Assembly: GCF_026571515.1 (NCBI RefSeq)
Contig: NW_026857342.1
Coordinates: 186,001-250,000 of the forward strand
Reading direction: 5' to 3'
Length of the DNA stretch: 64,000 nucleotides
DNA from: Ruditapes philippinarum
Taxonomy: Eukaryota
Part shown: in pieces, positions 8,591 through 45,000 of the stretch
Layout: each line of letters starts with the position of its first letter
Position numbering within the stretch: the first letter of the stretch is position 1
Made by a program: the position numbers and the translations under genes
The notes under the pieces: model-generated
The model's input: the letters and a program-made list of their open reading frames with translations, nothing else
Databases searched by the model: none
What the model was told of the DNA's origin: nothing

Positions 8591-8684
8591 ATAGATAAAT
8601 ACAGAATCCCTAAAGAAAGCCCAACACGGCAAAATTGAAAATGTTGCAGGCTCGGTTTGATTGAGCCTGTTCATGGACGGTACT
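8591..8684 (-). mobile_element. Structured short retroelement, family 1, 5'-truncated copy
   Basis: Near-identical to 11195-11288; shares the 3' end ...GGGATTCTGTATTTATCTAT; breaks off within stem 1. Confidence 0.8.
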
Positions 8685-10784: not shown

Positions 10785-11965
10785 TAACAAGAATAAAGAT
10801 CAACAAGGCAAAGGCAACGTTCACAGGCCGCAGACGCCGCCCCCGGGCACACCCAAGCAGGACATCCAGAAGGCACCAAACAAGTACCTGGAGTGAACAC
10901 AAGGGCGAAAGGAGTGGGACATGTAATGTGAAATAATATAAACAAAAACAGGCCCACAAGGGAATTAAAGGGAAAAGGGCTGTACGGGTGAAAAGGTGGG
11001 GGGGGGGGGTAAAAATGGAAGAGGGGGGAGAGTGAAAATACCTACCGTCAACGACAATCCAACAAGACAGACATCACAAAACATGTAAACATCCAAAAAC
11101 AAGTAACAATACAGACAAGAAAAACACGTGAAGGAACACAAAGGGGTACCGCTTTGGAATGGTCAATGGTAGTTAAACCACTGGGGAGTTTAAAATAGAT
11201 AAATATAGAATCCCTAAAGAAAGCCCAACACGGCAAAATTGAAAATGTTGCAGGCTCGGTTTGATTGAGCCTGTTCATGGACGGTACTGGAAAGTGCAAA
11301 TTACCGTCCACGCCCCCTAGCACCGGCTTAAGCAGAATTCAACATTTAAACGTGAAATAGTAAAATTTTGAATTTAGAAACATCAGCAGATGTGTTCATA
11401 CGGCGGTAATCATGGAACCTTCAATGTGACACTTCCGTGCCATTCCATGAAAAGCGGCGTATGGTCCCCAAGTAATAAAAAGCGTGTGCCCTAAACGAGA
11501 AAACAATGGGCGGAACTAAATAAAATGGAATTTTGAAACCGGTTTTTAGCGCGCCAAACCTCACTCTTAGCCCCAATATGATCCTGAATGACACGAAAAT
11601 GTATATAAAATTAATCCCCGCCAAGTGAAATTCTAACAATGGCCATGGTTACATTAGACGAATTAAATAAAACACATACAAAATTATGTTAATATGTAGA
11701 AAAAGTTACTGCCTAATGACCATTACCAAAGTACTCAATACCTTATAGGAAGGCAGAGCAACAAGAAAATCACCTACAAGGGCCCGACGAAGCAAGGCAG
11801 AAGACGAACATTAAGACAATTCAGTCCCCAAAGGGCTTTAAGAACTGTCCATCATAGAGTCTCCCACTTGGTCCGTCAGATGTAATCAAAAGAGCAAAGC
11901 GTAGCGTCCAACTGTAAAAGGGTTGAACACCAAGCATGCGGAATGCCTTAAAATAACTTGAGAAA
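10785..11965 (-). mobile_element. Penelope-like (Naiad-type) element 3' fragment: ORF C-terminus plus 3' UTR, interrupted by a nested insertion
   Basis: Minus strand 11957-11838, corrected for two small indels, reads VILRHSACLVFNPFTVGRYALLFDYxLTDQVGDSMMDSS*, resembling the C-terminal motif I recall for Naiad PLE ORFs (ACLVxNPxxVxxYAxLFNCTxxxxxxDSM). The UTR carries the GTGAGGTTTGGCGC...AACCGGTTTAAAC...CCAGTGG...TGACCATTCCAAAGCGGTACC module. Confidence 0.65.
11195..11535 (-). mobile_element. Structured short retroelement, family 1 (longest copy), nested in the PLE UTR
   Basis: Removing 11195-11535 plus one AAA restores GTTTAAACCGGTTTTT; AAA is duplicated (11192-94, 11536-38). Full two-hairpin core at 11248-11333. 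Confidence 0.8.
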
Positions 11966-33661: not shown

Positions 33662-35843
33662 ATAAGTAGTAATCTTTATTTACATCTCATCATTGTACAG
33701 ACATATACACAATGTTAAAAAAATTACAGCATAAAAGTACAATGCCACTCCAGCATGGAGTTATAAGAGATGAAAAAATATCACAATATTATAATATAAA
33801 TATATATATATATATATATAAATACATAAATCATTAGAACAACACGTTTAAGTAAAATAAAACTCCATACATAGACTAATAAAAGGAAACATCGTGACTA
33901 CCTAAAAGAAGCAATTTAAGATAGTAAGCGTACAACATTAAAACTGAGAAATCGTATAAAAATAACTAAAATAACGATTTTATTTCAGTTAAAAAAACAA
34001 ACAAACAACAAATTAATAAGAATAGCTAAGAAGAATAGCTGTAGTATTTCATACAAATGTGACAGATAGAAATATTTACATGAATAAGAAGCTATTTACA
34101 TAATAAAAACCGGCGTCTTTGTAAAATATTAAAACAGGTTTTGGCACAAATACGAATCATATCTATGTTTGTAAAAAGAAAACGGTATTTGTCATCATCA
34201 GACAGTGTCGAAAAGCTGTTATTTAAGGAACATGCTTTAGCCAACAAATCCCGCCTTATATCATTGTAAAGAGAACAATTCAAGATAACATGTAATTCGT
34301 TTTCTATACTATCAGTATTGCAAAAAGGACAGATCCTGGCTTGCTCTGGTAAGCCTTCATACCTCCCAGTTTCAATCCTTATGGGAGCGACCCCAATACG
34401 GAATTTACAGAAAGCAGATCTATGACTTGGTGGTAATATAAGTTTACAGTATTTTTCTACTTTATACTCAGTTTTAAATTTACTATACACTCGTAACTTA
34501 TTACGTCCACGACCAGAGGGCCCAATAACATTGTTGATTTTGTTATACCAAATACTTATACAATTATTCAATGTTTTCACTTCAACATCATGGGCAAAAG
34601 AACGAGGTATAGTACTGATAAAACTGGTGTACAAATGTAAATCATTGACATCATAATAACTTCTAACATGAAAATACCAGTTTCTACATGAGCGACTAGC
34701 TTTATTATAAGACCAGAGTGCCAAACGTTTATTAATTCTTGCCGAACTCATACATGATAGCTTAGACCAGTATAAAGAAATACATTTCCATTGTCGGACA
34801 ATTGGGGGTTTCCAACCCATATCGCCTGCTACACCATCATTAGGTGAATATTTCCCGACACCAAGAAAGAAACGCATAGCTCTGTTATGAACGGCCTCGA
34901 TACAAGAATATGACCGGAAACCCCATAATGGAGCGCTGTAATTAATAACTGGCCAAACGACGGTGTCGTATAATTTTGTAAAGACATCGTATGGTACACC
35001 ACCAATGACTTTGCATTTAGCAATTAGCAATCCTAAAGCACGACTGGCACTCTGGGCAACAGATTTTACAGTAATATCGTAATCTAAATGTTCATTAAGT
35101 ACTACGCCTAAGTAAGTATATCTATCAACAATACAAATCTGATTCGTTCCGCAAGTAAACATAAATTGGGTACATAATTCAGATTTCGGTCGGAAGTGTA
35201 CAACATTACTTTTATTGGCATTAACATTCATATTATTAAGCGAACACCAGCATTCTAGAGCATTTAATAACACTTGCAGATCCTCTGCTGATTCGGACAG
35301 TATAACAATATCATCGGCGTACAGCATAATACAAACATTCTCGGTTTCAATGTCTATACCTTTACCAAATGATTTAAGATAAATGGACAACTCGTTAATG
35401 AATAAATTAAACAAAAGAGGTGAAAGGATACATCCCTGACGTAGGCCACAATTAACATCAAACCAACCTGTCCTATGATTGTTAACCCTAACACATGACT
35501 TTACCGATACATATAATGATTTTACAGCTCCAAACATTTTACCACTTATGCCTATATCAGATAAGCGCTTCCATAAAATACTTCTATCTATAGTATCGTA
35601 TGCCTTTTTAAAATCTATGAAAGCACAAAAAGTGGATTTACGTAACTTTTTCCTAGTTTCAATTAAATTTGTTAAGCAAAGTACTTGGTCTGTAGTACTC
35701 CGACCTTTTCTAAAACCATTCTGTTCGTCAGAGACCTTATCATTGTTTTCGGACCAAGCATTTAACCTACTATTTAAAATAGAACAATAAATTTTATACA
35801 TAGAAGGGGCTAGGGCAATACCTCTGTAAGACAAGGGGTCTCT
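33662..35843 (-). mobile_element. CR1-group (CR1-Zenon-like) LINE, 5'-truncated
   Basis: Contains the uninterrupted RT ORF; 3' UTR with (TA)n and AATAAA near 33675; absent from the paralogue at ~52305. Confidence 0.92.
34092..35834 (-). CDS. Non-LTR reverse transcriptase plus C-terminal CCHC knuckle (ORF2 lacking the endonuclease)
   Basis: 580-aa ORF with SYRGIAL, QNGFRKGRS, FIDFKKAYD, GLRQGCILSPLLF, LYADD, YTYLGV, CPFC...ENELHVILNC. Not a native start: the element is truncated. Confidence 0.92.
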   Translation of the reverse strand: MSYRGIALAPSMYKIYCSILNSRLNAWSENNDKVSDEQNGFRKGRSTTDQVLCLTNLIETRKKLRKSTFCAFIDFKKAYDTIDRSILWKRLSDIGISGKMFGAVKSLYVSVKSCVRVNNHRTGWFDVNCGLRQGCILSPLLFNLFINELSIYLKSFGKGIDIETENVCIMLYADDIVILSESAEDLQVLLNALECWCSLNNMNVNANKSNVVHFRPKSELCTQFMFTCGTNQICIVDRYTYLGVVLNEHLDYDITVKSVAQSASRALGLLIAKCKVIGGVPYDVFTKLYDTVVWPVINYSAPLWGFRSYSCIEAVHNRAMRFFLGVGKYSPNDGVAGDMGWKPPIVRQWKCISLYWSKLSCMSSARINKRLALWSYNKASRSCRNWYFHVRSYYDVNDLHLYTSFISTIPRSFAHDVEVKTLNNCISIWYNKINNVIGPSGRGRNKLRVYSKFKTEYKVEKYCKLILPPSHRSAFCKFRIGVAPIRIETGRYEGLPEQARICPFCNTDSIENELHVILNCSLYNDIRRDLLAKACSLNNSFSTLSDDDKYRFLFTNIDMIRICAKTCFNILQRRRFLLCK

Positions 35844-38099
35844 GCATATATGTTATATGTTGTCATCGATCTTATCGATCTTCTATTTTCTTTTGTCGGC
35901 TTATAATGAAATATTATTTAGCACTTGTTTTTCAGTGAACGAATTTCATAATTTCATATTTTACTGTTTTAGTAATTCCTTAAAAACGCCAAAAACAGCA
36001 TAAAGTAAAAGCACGCAGCCTCGCTTGGATTACGTGTGCGACTTGAGAAAATCTTTAATGAATTTGATTGCATATAGACAAAAGGTATATTTGCTATTTT
36101 CAATTACTATGTTTTACTGTGTCTTTTTACGTTTAAGGTTGCTTGAATAACCTTTTTTCTTCAAATATTACATCGAGTTGAAAAAAAACATCAAGCGCAC
36201 GAAAGAATGTGTTTTTCGAAAACCCATATAAATTCTTATTATTCTAGTTAATCTTTATATAGTGTCAATATTCAGAATTGCAATCCCGTGTTATAAAAAG
36301 TAATTGACATTCAACCTTTGAGTTATTTATATATGATTTGTAGACTGGGCAGATTTTATGAAAGAGGAGTAAGAAAAAAAATCCAAGACAATCAAATTGT
36401 TAAAATGTCGATCAGCATTAATATAATTAAGTATTCAGTATTTATAAAACAAGGATCAAAGCATTGTTTCTTAGAAGTTACTTCAACACGTTTTACCGTG
36501 ATATAATTAAATAAGCTAACTTAAAGGTAAATTCAATTGATTTGATTCTCCTAAATTTAGAACTATTAATTCTCACATTTTAATTATTACAACTTTAAAC
36601 TTCGTTTTGTGCAAAAAGATAACGATTATATGGGTACATATAACAAGAACATTTAAAATTGTGAATCTTAGATCTCTACTAATTAGTGTAATGTAATTCC
36701 AATGTTTCTGCTTAGACCATTGATAGAATAAGATAATGTTAGGTAATAGATTAAAAGGGTGTTATAAATAAGGGTAAAGTCAAAAATAATGAGGCAAAAA
36801 TTTGAAAATAGGGTCAAAATTGAAAATTTATATTTCATTTTATTTTTCACCTAAAACCATGTGATATTGATTGATGTTTAATGCCGAGTAATTGGATTTT
36901 ATCTAACACAACACAAATTGTATAAATCAACATTTTATTTCAACTTATTAACAAAAATTAACAAAACCAATGCTTTATAAAATTGTGTCACTATACTTCC
37001 CAATGTTAATTAAATCATATGTTTTTGTTATATGTTAGTAACAGTAGTGATGTTAGGATAAGAAATACACCATTTTTTTTTACCAGAAGTTTTACAACAG
37101 AAAAAAATGCTATTGTTGTGTTACAAAAGTCTGATTTTCTTTAATGTAAGTACATCATGTTTTTCTATAGCTGGAGAAAATTGGGCAGAGAAATAAAAAA
37201 GTAGTTGTTAGTATGTATTAATAAATACTTTGATGTAAAATAAAGTTTCCAAATATTTCAACCTTTCAAAAAAAAATAATATGCAGTCAAATTTAACTTT
37301 GATTTTACATAAAAGCGTTACACTCCTGACATGACTAGCATAAGTTGTTTAAATGATAATAGTTCTTTACAGAAACATTGGAGGTAACAATAACATAAGA
37401 AAGACATGTACAGAACAACACTTATGTTTGAAAACATACTGATAGGTTATTAAATTTGAGAATAATTCTTAGAGGAAAGATATGAAGTTGCACTTAAAAC
37501 CGCAAACAAGTTTCTAACAAGTAAACAATTAGAAAATAAATGGAAATAAAGGTTATAAACATTAATTAAGCTTCTGTTCCTAACCATTAGGAAAATATGA
37601 AAATGATTTGTACCATGAAGAATCTATTTCACAAAAAAAATTACAGTAACACTTTAACATTTGAGTGTTACACTCCTGACAAATTCAGGCAAGACACTTA
37701 ATATCTTAAAATATTGATTTAAAAACTTTTACAATGAAATACTTAAGACAAGTATTAAGTTTTCTATGTTAATTGTTCCTTTTTGTTTGTCTTGCCTTTT
37801 TAAAAACACTTTGATAAAACCTTTTATAAATCTTTACTATATATAAATGTTAACCATCTGAGTGTAAAGATATTTTTTTGTATATATGACAATGTTCTAC
37901 TTGCTTTTCTACCCCTGTTTCATTACCATACTGGTTTAAGAGGACATTTACTTAAATAAAAGGATAAAAAGTAAACTACAAATTTAAACTACAAACATTA
38001 ACATGAACTGTCAAAATGTGTTTACACTCCTGACACAAGATGTGCACTTGACACTGTTTATTTTGAAAATATATGATTTCTTGGATTTTAAGTCATTCA

Positions 38100-38491
38100 G
38101 GTTAAATTTAAGCCTGATTCCGCGGCCAGGAAGAAGAATTGGCATTTTTGAGCTTCTGAACAATATCTTCCAAAGACTGCCAGGACACATCCTCTTTGGC
38201 TGGCCAAAACTGTACTCGTCAGCACCTCCGCTTGCTTTAAGGAACCTAACTTGGATGTCATCATCTGCCCTGTGATATTACCTATTCAATAAGTAGTTAA
38301 TATAATTTAAATGAGTTTATTTGGTCAAAGAAAAACAATTTCATTTCAAATTCTAAAAAATTCCGTCATAAAGTTACTGAGGAAACTAATGAAAAGTATA
38401 CAAAAACAACAATAACCCACCTTAGCAATGTACAGATATGTTTTTCTGTTTTGACTTGAGAGCTACAGCTACAAAATCTTCAGGGTTAAAT
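38100..38491 (-). pseudogene. C-terminal exons of the transposase gene
   Basis: Exon ~38491-38422 (FNPEDFVAVAL) and exon from 38281 (DDDIQVRFLK...WPAKEDVSW...PGRGIRLKF, with frameshifts); canonical splice sites. Confidence 0.6.
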
Positions 38492-38629
38492 CTGCAATAT
38501 GATAATTAAAAGGTTTTATACTGTGTCTTTAAAAGATACACATCTATAATTATTGGTAAAATTCTTCTGACAAAGAACAGAAACCTGCTTAAATTTATCC
38601 TTTTATATAAGATATTTATTTTGTCTTAC

Positions 38630-39170
38630 CTATTTAACCGCTGCAAGCTAACATAATGCTCAATTTCTGGAATGTAACCAACGACAAGTGTTGGTATGTT
38701 ACTGTCTCCATCTCCAATGCTTATGTTAGGAGTATCCCCATGAACAACATCTATCTTGCAAGACAGTGCTTTGCACATATTCTGTAAACACACATGGTCT
38801 GCATAGGTTCCATTCTTTGACATTTTTTCAATATATTTGGTTAAGTCACTTGTCAAGAACTGCTCTAATTCCAATTTGTCAGTCTGAAAAATAAAATTGT
38901 AAATTGTATCTTTTTTGAATCTTTGATTTAAAAATATAAAATTACAAGTTTTTTAAATTAAAAATTTAATAATTAAATGAATTTCAGGCATGACTTTAAA
39001 ACTAAGCTTTATAATAAATACCTCTGATAAATTTTGCATGTGATGAATTACTTTGCTTCTCAACTGCGTGTGAGTATGTTCAGTCATCCCCAGGGCATCT
39101 AACTGATCACTGATGGCCCAAAAGAAACAATTGCCGTCATCCTCGAAAATCTCCCCAACCCTTTTCTGCG
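38630..39170 (-). pseudogene. OTU-family cysteine protease (deubiquitinase-like) domain exons inside the Sola2 element
   Basis: Exon 39170-39022 VGEIFEDDGNCFFWAISDQL...LRSKVIHHM; GT-AG intron 39021-38884; in-frame exon 38883-38630 ...YIEKMSKNGTYADHVCLQ...LVVGYIPEIEHYVSL. The OTU D-G-N-C and H-Y motifs are both present. Confidence 0.85.
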
Positions 39171-39721
39171 AATTTTATTTTCAAAATTCACTTAGAGTTT
39201 TCATTTTTATGCTCTGTTGAGTTGTTATAAGACTCAATGCTTTCTGTAAGCACACCTCTCAGGTTAGTCTCTCTCTCACAATGGTTAGTATTACTAGCTA
39301 CTACTTTATTTAAGGATAGGTATAAAGCAAAAGCGGAGCAAAATGCAGTGTTTTTAGCAAAATTCAAAGGGTTAAAATAAAAGACTAAGGACTACAAAAA
39401 GCAAAGCAGAGAAGCAAGCAAAACTGAAAATTGAATATGTAGGAACTGCATGCAAAAATGTGATAGCAAAAAATGATTGCAGAATTAACAGTAATTATCA
39501 TAGATGAAAAAAAAAAAATTACTGTATGTCTTTATTGTTTTATTGACTTGGTTACCATTTAGAAATAATGTCAAATCTTATCATACTAATTGGCATACTT
39601 GTTTAAATGAGTTTTATAGGATTTAAGAATTGAAAATTGTCAAGGATACAATGATCAGATGATACTGTATCAAGTTCATGATAAATTTTGTTCTTCATGG
39701 ATTGTTTTACCTGTAGCCAAA

Positions 39722-42060
39722 CTAAAGTGTTTTTGGATTTTTTCTGTACTGACTATACAAGCAGTGACCCTGTTGGCCACCAGTACAGACAACACATATA
39801 CAACTCAGGTCATAGCAGGTGAGCACATCTGTACTTGGGTGATGCTGGGAAATCATATGAAAAGAATGTGTTCCTTTCAGAGACTTAAGAGTTTGTTTGA
39901 TCTTTGGTACGGATATCTTGATTTTCTTGTATGGCATGAAGATAATCTTTTGATTGATCTTCTCATTTGGATTTTGAGAAAGAGCAAGATATACTTGGTA
40001 GGCATTGTTTATGACTTTGCCTCCAAGAATGAGACGTTCCAGCTTTCTTTTGATTCCAGCACCAATGCCATCACTTTGACCTTTGCCATGTCCAGACTCC
40101 ATGAAATGGTAGATAACCTTGATGTCAAAAGTTTCTTGAAGAAGTGTGATATGATTAAATGCTTTGCTGCATTTGTATTGCGCTGCACAATTGTCAGTGA
40201 ACCTATGGATAACCTTTAATGGACAAGGACCTGGGTTCTTTGCAAGATGACCTATCAACTGTGTTGTAAATGTATAAACAACATCGGCATTGTGTGCTAA
40301 GTAATCAGATAGAAAAACAATTGACTCTTTCACAATCACTGGATTTTCTATTGTACTTTGTGGGTCATGTCTTTTTCAATTTTGTCCGTGTTGGGCTTTC
40401 TTTAGGGATTCTGTATTTATCTATGTTACTATAAAAACCGATGTAATGTAACTTGTTTTGTAGTCCAGTGAGCTGATTTCTATCTCATCTTGAGGTTGTA
40501 GGAGAAATGTTCTCTGAAAAGTCCATAACAACCAAGCAGTGGTCCAGAGGAAGGTCTGAAAGTAAGTAGGCTTTCCATTTTATAATTGGAAATTTGCTCT
40601 AAATAAATGGCTTGAATGACTTTTCAAGAGATTTAGCAATATCATGTACAAGATCTGCAACACTGCAGGTCTTTTCAGCTTGTATCCAGCGAGTTGTATG
40701 CTTTTTTATCTCCATCTTTAGAAATATTAACGACTCTTTTGAGGACTCCCATTGGTAGTACTTTGCCACAACACTGTTTCAGGCACATGCCTGAACAAGT
40801 GGTTTCATAGGTGTTGGACAACGATAGCAGTTCCACAATCGAACACATTGCCTAATCAACACATGAATTTTAGGGATGTCTTCAATATGGGCACAGAGAA
40901 TAAAGTTTGACAGCTTTTAGGGGTGGCTTTTTAATAATGGCATTGACTGCTGCTGGGCAATCTTATTCAAATTGGCTTCAACTTTTTGTTCAAAATTGAA
41001 ATCTTTTGTGCAAAGTGACATACAGACTCCCTTCTGCATGTCAAGTTCTAACCGTTTGAAATTTCTTAGGAATCATTTTTCTTAAAAGTGCTGAATTCTC
41101 CTTACCCTATAATCTGGAATTGAATAGCTTTTTAAAGCTCCTTGAACAAATTTTCCAATTTTTGTACAGAGCAGATGAACGGCTTTGGAACATGCCTGCC
41201 CATCTATCAAAATTGGTTTGTCCTTTTTGTTTGGCATTTTCTTGAATGTTCGTCAAAAGGAAAGCTTAGGTAGTTTTGGGCATCCATGATTGTTTAAATT
41301 GAGTGGTTTTGACAATCTTTTTGCTTGTTTGTTTTTTCTTCGTTTGTATTCATTTAGTGATTTTTTGCTATTCCAGAGTGAAGTGCTTTTTTTCTGAAAA
41401 AGCCAACTTCTTTTTTGCACCTGCCTGTTCCTTGTTAGGCCTTCCTTGTCTTCTTAATTCAAGAGTTTCTAGCAGATTTTCAGTACCTGGACTAGATGTT
41501 ACTCAAATTAAGCAAGACCTCCTCTTAGGTGTAGCATGTTTTATGATATGGCTCATTGTTTTGGCCCAGTAGTTGGAATCTTCAGGCAAGGACTTTCGAA
41601 CACGTTCAGCTCTTTTGCGTAATGTTGAATGTTGATCAACTTTCTTTTTACAACTGTACCTCACATTTGTGTTTGCTGTTTCAATGTTTAGTGTTTTGCT
41701 TTTACGTTTCCTACTGTCTTTTGTCCACTTTCTTTGCTTTACTTTACACTCTCTGTCAAAATTCTCATCATTTTCTCTCTTCAATTTTTGTTTAGATTTA
41801 TATGCTTTGTTCTCTGTTTTTTTCTTTTCTTTTAATTCAAGTAGCTTTTGTTTATAGACAGGGTCATTTTTAAGTTTTTCACGGTATTTACGAACCCGTT
41901 CTTTTGAAGATTTTGTTGTTTTTTTCTTTGTTTGTTTCTTGTCATCATCTTGTTTTTGTCTTGTTATATTTGTAGAAACATGTGATTTTAGAGCTCTTTC
42001 AATAGCAGGAAGGCTTACTTTTAGTTTTTTCATACTTACTTCAATTGTTTATAAGACTGC
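39722..42060 (-). pseudogene. Sola2-type transposase, frameshifted
   Basis: K/R-rich N-terminus (SSKERVRKYREKLK), VVMDFSEN at ~40520, IVFLSD..H..V, FTDNCAAQYKC, ESGHGKGQSDGIGAGIKR, Cys-rich SCICVVC; interrupted by a 52-bp retroposon. Confidence 0.85.
40373..40424 (+). mobile_element. 52-bp 3' end of structured family 1, inserted in the transposase coding region
   Basis: TTTTCAATTTTGTCCGTGTTGGGCTTTCTTTAGGGATTCTGTATTTATCTAT matches the reverse complement of 8591-8641. Confidence 0.85.
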
Positions 42061-45000
42061 TGAAAATAAAACAAAGTTAACTACAATTGCTGAAAAAAGA
42101 AAAAAAAATGTCAGGAGTGTAACACTTTTCACTATTCTCACATATTAACTTATATTGCATACAAATTCTTCAATAACTGTATATAAATGCTTTGTTCTGC
42201 AAAGAGTATATATATTATTTTAATTTCTCAATAATTTACTAAGTGTATTATCATTAGATTATATGATTATACTTGTCAATAGTAGACATTTAGGAAATTT
42301 TGATGTTATTTAAGTAAATATACTTAATATCAGAACTTAAGCATTGTTTTTTTAAAAAAAAAACTACTAAATTACCTTTCCTCATGAATAGTGGCAAGAA
42401 TCATTTTTAGATATGAAATTTACATGTTATATTCATGAAATAGTTACAAGGTTAAAAGATGCAAAAATAGTGTTACACTCCTGACGTCACTTATGATCAT
42501 GTACAGAAAGTACATGATTTAGTTAACTTGAACTAATGTCACTGCTGACATCACTTGGACTCATGTTTCTGAAAAAGAAAGAATATATTTATATAACACC
42601 ATGTATGCAATAAGGAAATCAGTAAAAGTACAAGATGTTACACTCCTGACACTGAGCACTGTCATTATTTTAAATCGAAACCGAGTCAATAACATTTAAA
42701 GCATAGAAAAAAGAGAATTTATATCCTTAACTATATACAATGGTCAAAATGTTAGAAGCAAGGAAAAGCTGTTAATAACAAAGAAATAAGCAGAAATTTT
42801 ACTGTTAGTACAAACCATGCATTTTTTAAAGTACATTTTATTTTACAACGACTGACTTTAGTGACTGGATAACCAAGTGGGATACCTACATTTTACAAAA
42901 AAAATAAGAAAAAGCAATTGCAAGAGCATTAGATATATAACATAAGTAACAAAAATTGTCATTTAAGAAACTGTTTTTCTGTATCAGGAGTAGAGAATCA
43001 TCATTTGTGTAAAATGTCACACTAAAAGTGTTACACTCCTGACATTTTTGGGTAATTTTTTTCTTGCAAATTTTTCACTTGTAGCATGATGTCCCTTAAA
43101 CTTGGCATATTTTACAACTCTGATAGATGCTATATTTAGCACATATAACAATATATACATCTATTAAAATATTAGTCTGGGTAGCCTTTAAATGTTTGGC
43201 CTCATTATTTTTGACTTTACCCATAAGAGAATCGCATTCTGGAGCATGCGTTGCGTTATTTTGTCAGTTGTTCTTATTAAAGTGATCAAACGTTACATTT
43301 AAAAAAAGCATATTCCATTTTTCCCCAAATAGACTTCATATTTAGTGTTCAAACCGTCTACAGTTATTTGGTACGCTTTCCACTCGCGGTTACAAAATAA
43401 ACGCACTGTTTGATACAATTTTAATAGTCCTCAGAACGAGTCTTGTTTTGCATTTTGCTTTGTTAATTCACCATACTATATATTTTTACCTGTTGCTCTG
43501 TTTAGCATATAAACCTATCGTTTAAATGTAATTCTACTTTGAACAAAATATTCATAGTAACTATACAAAGCCTTGATATAGTTTTTAGGATAATAATTAG
43601 CTGTGATCAGGAATAACGTTCAATGTCATACTTTCTATTTCTGGCCTGGAGTTTTTAACTTGAAAACGTAACAAAAAGTCATTTACATATATGTACACAT
43701 TTCTACTTTTTAGACAACCATACTTAACTTTTGCATATCTTTGCTAATTGGAAGACAGAGAAAAAAATAGTAAAAGAACAGTTTTTTTTTGCTGATACTT
43801 TAAAATTAGTAAAACGAAAAAGAATAACGTGTAGTCTCAATTTAAAAATTATATGGATGAATGGATACATGTAAAAACAAAGCGAACTAAAAATTAAATT
43901 CCACTTGTATAAACCAATGTTATATGTAGCTTATCTAATATTTAACACGATTTGAAGTAAATATTTTATCGTAGAATCACAGCATGAACTTGACATATGA
44001 TTCATAAGATCCAATATTTTATCCGATTGTTGTACATTACATCAAATATAAACTTAAATATTGTTATTTTTCAAGGCAGTTAAGCACAAATGACATATGG
44101 ACATATGACATATGAAGTTAAATACAATTTTCTGAATTACACACAAACATAAATAGGAAGGTTGATTTAAATTTATTTGATTACAAACTAAACTTAAAGT
44201 CCTATGAAATATATGTAAGTGTGCAGACCTATGTTCCGAAATTATTTGAAGCCACTAAGGTATATAAAATGTATTGTTGTGTCTAGCAGGCACAACAAGG
44301 TATGATTTGTCAAACAATTTAGCTTTTTACAGACTGAAAATTTTCTCTAAGTGGATGCTAAGCAAATCAGGTTAATCAAGATAAAATCAGGAAATTGAAC
44401 AATTATGATTATAATTTATGTACTTAATATTCAGAAATGTGTCTGTTTAATGAAAGTAAAGCGGAAATTGAATAAAGGAAGAAAGAACATTCATTTTATT
44501 ACATGTAACCCTGTACAGAATTTATTCCTTAACCAAACATATGTCACGTAGTTAGCAATGTATGGGAAGCAAGTCATTAAAAACTACGAATTTAAAAAGA
44601 ATTACAGAGAATAATGAATTGTTCTCTTCCTTTTTAGTCGTTTTGCCCTTTTACCCTCCTTGTCTGATAAATGAAACTGTAACTAAAATAGAATAATAGT
44701 TTTGTCTTTAATCAGCTTGAAATAACGACACTGTACCACAGTCAATGATAAAGCATTTGCCTTAAAAGTGTATCTGCTTTGATTTGCTTAGTTTAGATTA
44801 CTACGTAAGTTAATACGAGTAAACTGACTGCCTAATTGGAAACAAACTGTTCTTTAGAGGAACGGTGAATAATTAATACAGTAAACGAAGACAAAAAGTT
44901 GATTAAAAAAGAAATTGTCACTAAAATGTTACTAAAAAGTGTTTTAATTAGAAAGCTTTACTTAGGATGTAGGCGTCAAAGGAATATGTTTCGAATTTTG

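Follow-up and report, generated by a model that had tools for sequence, protein, structure and literature searches.

A Sola2-type element with an OTU domain ahead of its C-terminal module

The window analysed here is a 64,000-nucleotide stretch of Ruditapes philippinarum DNA (contig NW_026857342.1, positions 186,001 to 250,000 of the forward strand). It contains an element of 6,451 bp (window 36772-43222) that, judged from its motifs and termini, is a Sola2-type cut-and-paste transposon (Table 1). The ends are perfect 24-bp terminal inverted repeats (TIRs), flanked on both sides by the target-site duplication (TSD) ATAA. The catalytic motifs DFSEN, FTDNCAAQYK and HGKGxxDG and the WP motif of the C-terminal module lie on the same strand between the TIRs, together with two exons encoding an OTU deubiquitinase-like domain, an arrangement recognized in a preliminary description of this DNA. 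The link across 39180-39720, from the catalytic region to the OTU exons, had been left open there; it is predicted to be a conserved U12-type intron with its donor at 39649.

The element ends are GGG...CCC, and Sola2 ends were reportedly given by Bao in 2009 as GRG...CYC. The core motifs match, motif by motif and by eye, the Repbase Sola2 rows in the supplementary alignment of PMC3627910, with DF(A/S)EN, Q-x-E-I-x-S-x-HW, TLHP, Q(Y/F)K and HGK-x-x-DG in common. Short TIRs, the C-terminal WP module and a 4-bp TSD, the last described as a mark of Sola2 (PMC3627910), are further shared features. A Pfam scan gave no match for the DDE core. A link to Vertnin was also considered, for which the literature yielded just a helix-turn-helix remark. 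The element differs from 17 other Sola2 open reading frames (ORFs) taken from the same genome in two respects: an OTU sits before the C-terminal module, whereas none of the 17 has one, and the coding sequence has four introns, the first predicted to be U12-type, whereas all 17 are single ORFs.

The OTU domain

The catalytic Cys (TGT, 39129-39127) and His (CAT, 38658-38656) of the OTU signature were confirmed as minus-strand codons. The two OTU exons, described earlier as spliced in frame, are indeed joined, in phase 0, over a GT-AG intron of 138 nt; contigs of four of eight sequencing runs contain this joint. The first of them had been thought to start near 39165-39170; sister copies remain in frame further upstream, and the start lies at about 39300. 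Both exons match the Pfam OTU profile PF02338, the first below the cut-off of 23.3 bits (E=2.6e-4, 21.9 bits, profile positions 3-40) and the second above it (E=2.7e-6, 28.3 bits, profile positions 44-92). P0049, a spliced homolog of the window OTU from Mercenaria, reaches 52.9 bits (E=6.9e-14). The P0049 model has a predicted local distance difference test score of 91.7 and is closest to OTUD3, with a Z score of 18.0, a root-mean-square deviation (rmsd) of 2.2 over 133 residues and a Foldseek E value of 2e-9. Across OTUD3, OTUD1 and yeast Otu2 (PDB 4bou, 4bop, 7pl7) the fold matches at Z 17.7-18.0 and rmsd 2.2-2.8 over 133-143 residues, and the DGNC and HY loops are common to all, whereas sequence identity is only about 20% and the Sola2 OTU has a Val at the second position after the catalytic His (His+2). 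The modelled homolog thus supports the conclusion that the window exons encode a real OTU fold.

The window OTU has the Cys-His pair and an Asp three residues before the Cys. In OTUD-type enzymes the third catalytic residue is an Asp or Asn at His+2. The third residue differs among OTUs, however, and some are described as functioning with a Cys-His dyad (PMC11776055). The motifs D-x-x-C and H-Y are invariant in all four intron-bearing OTU families and in intronless fusions. The comparison across families proposed earlier gave, over six family pairs, a proportion of nonsynonymous differences (pN) of 0.33-0.44 in OTU codons against a saturated proportion of synonymous differences (pS) of 0.71-0.86; pN of the DDE core is lower, at 0.22-0.30.

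A predicted U12-type intron between the DDE exon and the OTU

The DDE exon ends at 39650, and the sequence GTATCCTT begins at 39649; the U12 donor consensus is given as [G/A]TATCCTT (bioRxiv 2020.10.12.336362). GTATCCTT occurs once per element, directly behind the Cys-rich tail with which the DDE exon ends, in all seven families of the intron-bearing clade for which there is DNA sequence (window, L031, L041, L042, L043, L044 and L046, with 45-66% identity to the window DDE ORF). L046 has frameshifts and an apparently interrupted intron. The body of the intron differs among families and its length varies from 198 to 413 nt, while the donor is strictly kept. Protein predictions point to the same site: of 24 homologous proteins, 22 reach the donor region (five of them from the same families as the DNA loci), and 17 of these end in [C/R/S/G]-I-L, the read-through of N|GT ATC CTT, where about 4% would be expected. 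The other five comprise P0018, P0020, the Mya model and two with an early end or a shift of frame. An alternative main donor at 39710 (GTAAAA) was ruled out, as homologous ORFs continue past it to the GTATCCTT site.

At the other end, CCTTA (five introns) or ACTTAAC (one) is found 6-18 nt before a phase-1 AG in all six introns with an intact 3' end, compared with 63 of 5,872 AG sites in the window (1.1%), for a motif defined post hoc. The U12 branch-site consensus is TTCCTT[G/A]AC, placed no more than some 45 nt from the acceptor; its core is present in all six, with 2-3 mismatches to the 9-mer. The host genome has two U12 small nuclear RNA (snRNA) genes (L115, L116; >100 bits) that carry the canonical branch-pairing sequence and are identical over their first 40 bases. 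With U12 snRNA as the component searched for, the host is judged to have a minor spliceosome. In L025, a second long copy of the element, joining the donor to any of three tandem acceptors opens a stop-free frame of 274-276 more residues that runs to the end of exon 5, and read-through into intron 1 meets a stop after 8 residues. Together, these sequence signals predict that the gap between the DDE exon and the OTU is a conserved U12-type intron.

In the outgroup L045, GTATCCTT is missing from the end of the DDE exon. The sole copy in L045 is at L045:1165, upstream of the ORF and followed by an AG, and an apparent major-class donor in a different phase was seen by eye at L045 ~3540, near the U12-intron position.

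Spliced and retained forms in RNA contigs

Splicing was compared in eight runs, comprising seven contig sets and one raw read set (about 4 in 100 reads, with depth <2 over most of exon 1). None of the runs is registered as RNA, and X2 and X15, which have no canonical joint, may be DNA. Contigs lose rare forms and do not equal transcripts, and reads are not assignable to a single copy. GT-AG joints were found in contigs of X1, X3, X5 and X7 for intron 2, of X1, X3, X4, X5 and X7 (five studies) for intron 3, and of X1, X3, X4 and X5 for intron 4, X7 skipping exon 4. The middle of intron 3 is uncovered in X3, X4, X5 and X7, so the contigs of these four runs do not come from genomic DNA. X1, X3, X4, X5 and X7 each have a contig that is unspliced through 39649, and in X1 and X3 it continues through the entire intron 1. 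In X2, X4 and X5, which belong to three studies, contigs end near 39525, just past an AATAAA at 39536-39531 and before a variable T-run, a spot that marks either an intronic poly(A) site or an assembly break.

The OTU as a trait of a Sola2 lineage

The order DDE, first OTU half, second OTU half, C-terminal module recurs in L031, a second family of the same genome (57% identity), as well as in L042 and L043, two contigs of metagenome origin. A gene model of Mya arenaria combines the WP motif with the DDE and the first half of the OTU. Four further intron-bearing families carry the OTU. A profile search with the second OTU exon returned 358 proteins at E <=0.001; among the best 150 of these plus P0052, 39 of which were of at least 240 residues, at least six are uninterrupted Sola2-OTU ORFs (P0052, P0098, P0104, P0117, P0119, P0129). 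Private capture of the OTU by the window copy is thereby excluded: the domain is present in ten deletion derivatives, in the second long copy, in other families and in the uninterrupted ORFs.

In an OTU tree of 36 rows, in which the labels of P0004 and P0015 were transferred from loci 86-94% identical, the Sola2-linked OTUs group together (99/98), along with one unassigned row, in a clade separate from integrase-linked OTUs. A DDE tree of 46 rows recovers the intron-bearing group with L045 (100/99) and an intronless OTU group (100/98), and rows without a known OTU fall between the two. With these trees, one old OTU capture followed by many losses would fit, and so would exchange of the OTU module among Sola2 lineages. 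At least two OTU losses occurred inside the intron-bearing clade; in L041, the linker continues directly into the C-terminal module.

Three integrase-like, Ginger-like ORFs of the same genome (L038, L039, L040) also carry an OTU; in L038 the frame spans 1,120 residues and its tail is an acidic repeat. Proteins of chitin-synthase-like/SAM, ankyrin, kinase and TPR types carry the HYV-type OTU seen in Sola2 as a fusion (P0124, P0127, P0155, P0165, P0167, P0174, P0188). By sequence, this mobile OTU is a possible source of the Sola2 capture.

The C-terminal module is found in one ORF with the DDE core in 16 of the 17 intronless Sola2 ORFs sampled from the genome. In the P0049 model, the final 88 residues resemble BAH, Tudor and PWWP domains only weakly (Z 6-7.7). 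Since 16 of 17 intronless ORFs join the DDE core to this module and six ORFs join the DDE region to an OTU, the three parts belong in one chain, which supports the OTU as a probable integral module of the Sola2 transposase in its lineage. The full enzyme most likely requires removal of intron 1, because the C-terminal module is within the transposase chain of relatives. The transposase-OTU fusion proposed earlier therefore stands in part: OTU-to-C-terminal joints in contigs and the uninterrupted relatives speak for it, whereas the joint from DDE to OTU was seen in none of the eight runs.

Proposed role of the intron and alternative explanations

We favour, with moderate confidence, the reading that this Sola2 transposon keeps an internal OTU behind a retained, predicted U12 intron whose splicing would yield the full-length enzyme, and that the host minor spliceosome likely limits its supply. 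Splicing of intron 1 by a slow or tissue-restricted U12 route would produce a DDE-OTU-reader protein of about 1,030 residues. Retention would give a protein of about 760 residues that keeps the DDD core and lacks the OTU and the C-terminal module, or would lead to RNA degradation. Most RNA would thus end as truncated protein or be degraded, and a small or tissue-limited spliced share would supply the full enzyme. The OTU might act as a Cys-His deubiquitinase at the transpososome, beside the Tudor/BAH-like module, and might trim ubiquitin off the transposase itself or off nearby chromatin or repair proteins; a role of ubiquitin at transposition was proposed for Ginger1 in 2010 (PMC2836005). More tentatively, and as a possibility that we would not put at even chances, the lineage may have gained the U12 intron as a switch, in which splicing adds the deubiquitinase and the chromatin-reader-like module to form the active enzyme and retention makes a truncated repressor.

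Several observations weigh against the favoured reading. The 39650-to-39300 joint is missing from all eight runs, in data where contigs cannot show absence. Intron 2, too, is retained in X3, to about one half, so some of the retention may reflect nascent RNA. The branch motif was chosen after the fact, and two of its six sites have three mismatches to the 9-base consensus. The OTU is dispensable, because L041 and L044, within the intron-bearing clade, and all 17 other Sola2 ORFs sampled from the genome are without it. Its activity is questioned by the Val at His+2, present in 106 of 128 homologs with the motif. Finally, RefSeq annotates the OTU and C-terminal region of Mercenaria as a gene of its own (P0049), and in L031, L042 and L043 a Met in frame lies some 20 residues upstream of the catalytic Cys, from which the OTU could be translated by itself.

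Three other explanations were considered. The OTU may serve to bind ubiquitin, with little or no catalytic activity, or may be a passenger. The Val at His+2, the two or more losses within the clade and a pN above that of the DDE core all agree with this. The invariance of D-x-x-C and H-Y in the intron-bearing families and the intronless fusions, and the dyads that suffice in some OTUs (PMC11776055), make it unlikely.

Alternatively, intron 1 may be U12-type and spliced, with its retention reflecting ordinary minor-intron slowness or nascent RNA and having no selected role, and the intron may persist as precise loss is rare. U12 introns are described as inefficiently and slowly spliced in general (bioRxiv 2020.10.12.336362), and the major-class intron 2 is partly retained too. 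Such neutrality sits poorly with a donor that stays strict among families of 45-66% protein identity whose introns vary in body and length, with the finding that none of the seven families has drifted to a major-class donor, and with the lack of introns in most Sola2 relatives examined; we regard it as rather improbable.

The least credible of the three is that the locus makes two products, a DDE-only protein through intronic polyadenylation or read-through and a separate OTU-reader protein from an internal start, with the U12 signals serving to block or separate them. The contig ends after the AATAAA in X2, X4 and X5 are a weak hint of it, but the variable T-run near 39525 can break contigs, those of X1 and X3 pass through, and AATAAA is found in only three of six introns. 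An in-frame Met precedes the Cys in three of four families but L025 has no in-frame ATG there. Separate RefSeq models (P0049, P0050) exist, and none of 47 other proteins found through the Mya model spans both parts; against this, the phase-1 acceptor and branch motif are kept in six of six introns, OTU-less families included, and uninterrupted fusions exist in relatives.

Comparison with known systems

A transposase-OTU fusion is already known from Ginger1, which has a C-terminal OTU or Ulp1, and from Helitrons, as described in PMC2836005. These systems share with the present one an OTU fused to a transposase in animals, often with introns, and the idea of a link to ubiquitin and DNA repair (PMC2836005). 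Sola2, in contrast, is a different transposase superfamily, its OTU is internal, and its OTUs form their own clade (99/98) apart from the integrase-linked ones. The preliminary description did not count an OTU among the known features of Sola2, and no precedent was found for Sola2 itself; the Ginger1 precedent (PMC2836005) had been understated. In the literature searched, mostly by title and abstract, there was no description of an OTU in Sola2, which Repbase and a curated bivalve library could already note, or of a U12 intron in a transposase gene. The main texts of a bivalve survey that curates 14 Sola2 families (PMC10294476) and of a broad DDE survey (bioRxiv 2021.09.26.461848) do not mention the OTU.

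The predicted U12-type intron between the DDE exon and the OTU is new here, and more surprising than the OTU. DDE transposases at their most basic are described as intronless (bioRxiv 2021.09.26.461848), and minor introns as rare, mostly ancient and seldom gained (bioRxiv 2020.10.12.336362). The intron is reminiscent of IVS3 of the Drosophila P element, which likewise halts the frame when retained, with loss of a C-terminal part of the transposase (PMC7776569). IVS3, however, is controlled at the U1 small nuclear ribonucleoprotein of the major class and its retention removes one third of the enzyme (PMC7776569), whereas the present intron would belong to the minor class and the short protein would retain the DDD core in full. 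For P, repressor activity is described as proven (PMC7776569); for the short form of Sola2 it can only be proposed, by analogy. A link between DNA transposons and U12-type introns has also been drawn for the U12 intron expansion in Physarum, where a transposon is proposed to turn into an intron (bioRxiv 2020.10.12.336362); here a transposase gene would contain the U12 intron and so rely on the minor spliceosome.

A U12 intron at one position in at least seven transposon families, and in none of the sister Sola2 lineages there, would be a case of minor-intron gain, and the lineage could serve as a simple system for testing whether slow minor splicing rations a protein. The intron would also explain why gene callers shorten these transposases or list the OTU as an orphan gene of its own. 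Sola2 would join Ginger1, Helitron and Mutator as transposons with ubiquitin-family proteases, and an OTU beside a reader-like module would make the old proposal of transposases editing ubiquitin at DNA breaks testable with one short domain. If the switch reading is true, a selfish element times its jumps by minor-spliceosome activity, and a U12 intron gain in animals becomes datable.

Anatomy and copies of the element

Table 1. Features of the Sola2-type element and its flanks, in window coordinates.
Feature	Position	Strand	Basis
TSD ATAA, left	36768..36771		sequence
3' TIR, 24 bp, perfect, starts GGG	36772..36795	+	sequence
3' arm, three subterminal GTCAGGAGTG motifs	37321, 37671, 38025 (37321..38034)	-	sequence
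Exon 5, WP half of C-terminal Tudor/BAH-like module and stop	38058..38281	-	RNA-contig joint; frame open in L025; weak fold matches in homolog
Intron 4, major class	38282..38420	-	spliced in contigs of 4/8 runs
Exon 4, DFVAV half of C-terminal module	38421..38491	-	sequence and RNA contigs
Intron 3, major class	38492..38629	-	spliced in contigs of 5/8 runs
Exon 3, C-terminal half of OTU with His	38630..38883	-	Pfam E=2.7e-6
Intron 2, major class, inside OTU domain	38884..39021	-	spliced in contigs of 4/8 runs; retained form also present
Exon 2, linker and N-terminal half of OTU with Cys	39022..39300	-	Pfam E=2.6e-4; start inferred; frame open from acceptor in L025
Predicted U12 branch site (CCTTA from 39315) and in-frame AG acceptors ending 39304, 39301, 39298	39298..39315	-	pairs with host U12 snRNA
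Intron 1, predicted U12-type (GT-AG subtype), phase 1; donor GTATCCTT at 39649-39642	39301..39649	-	retained in RNA contigs
Exon 1, basic N-terminus, Cys-rich region, Sola2 DDD core (DFSEN, FTDN, HGKGxxDG), Cys-rich tail	39650..42033	-	frameshifted in window assembly copy
59-bp piece of unrelated repeat within exon 1 of window copy	40374..40432		without counterpart in contigs of three runs
5' arm, four subterminal GTCAGGAGTG motifs	42110, 42476, 42641, 43034 (42110..43043)		sequence
5' TIR	43199..43222	-	sequence
TSD ATAA, right	43223..43226		sequence

The TIR sequence has 36 exact matches in the genome, 16 of them paired; five pairs are of 2.8 kb, and there are four single ends. A perfect 4-bp TSD flanks nine of the 11 full copies examined, namely the window copy, L025, whose flanks differ from those of the window copy, and nine derivatives of 3.6-4.1 kb; a tenth derivative was covered in part. 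The nine derivatives retain the OTU exons and have lost the equivalent of window 42025-39619. In the non-autonomous 4-kb derivatives (L026-L030, L032-L036) the U12 donor is gone with the DDE exon and the OTU exons are frameshifted; diverged contigs and reads make these derivatives appear to be transcribed. L025 matches a named Ruditapes philippinarum gene model across 566 of 566 residues, and its DDE exon carries a deletion.

Over two stretches compared with L025, the window copy shows 63 extra-base and 12 missing-base events and 15 substitutions. Because extra and missing bases outnumber substitutions, and because contigs lack the listed extra bases as well as the 59-bp insert, most frameshifts of the window copy are likely assembly errors; true decay is unlikely on the same counts. 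The 59-bp repeat piece has very high read depth, and contigs of three runs have six bases in its place. Further pieces of this high-copy repeat lie at window 8591-8640 and 11195-11244. The seven subterminal GTCAGGAGTG motifs have spacings of 350, 354, 366, 165 and 393 bp, and the motif is common to L031, L041 and L044. The 5' arm of L025 has an inserted 167-bp tandem array of 7.4 copies (L025:6559-7791). Outside the element, a 586-residue open frame on the minus strand at window 34095-35852 has, by eye, the motifs of a reverse transcriptase of the long interspersed nuclear element (LINE) type.

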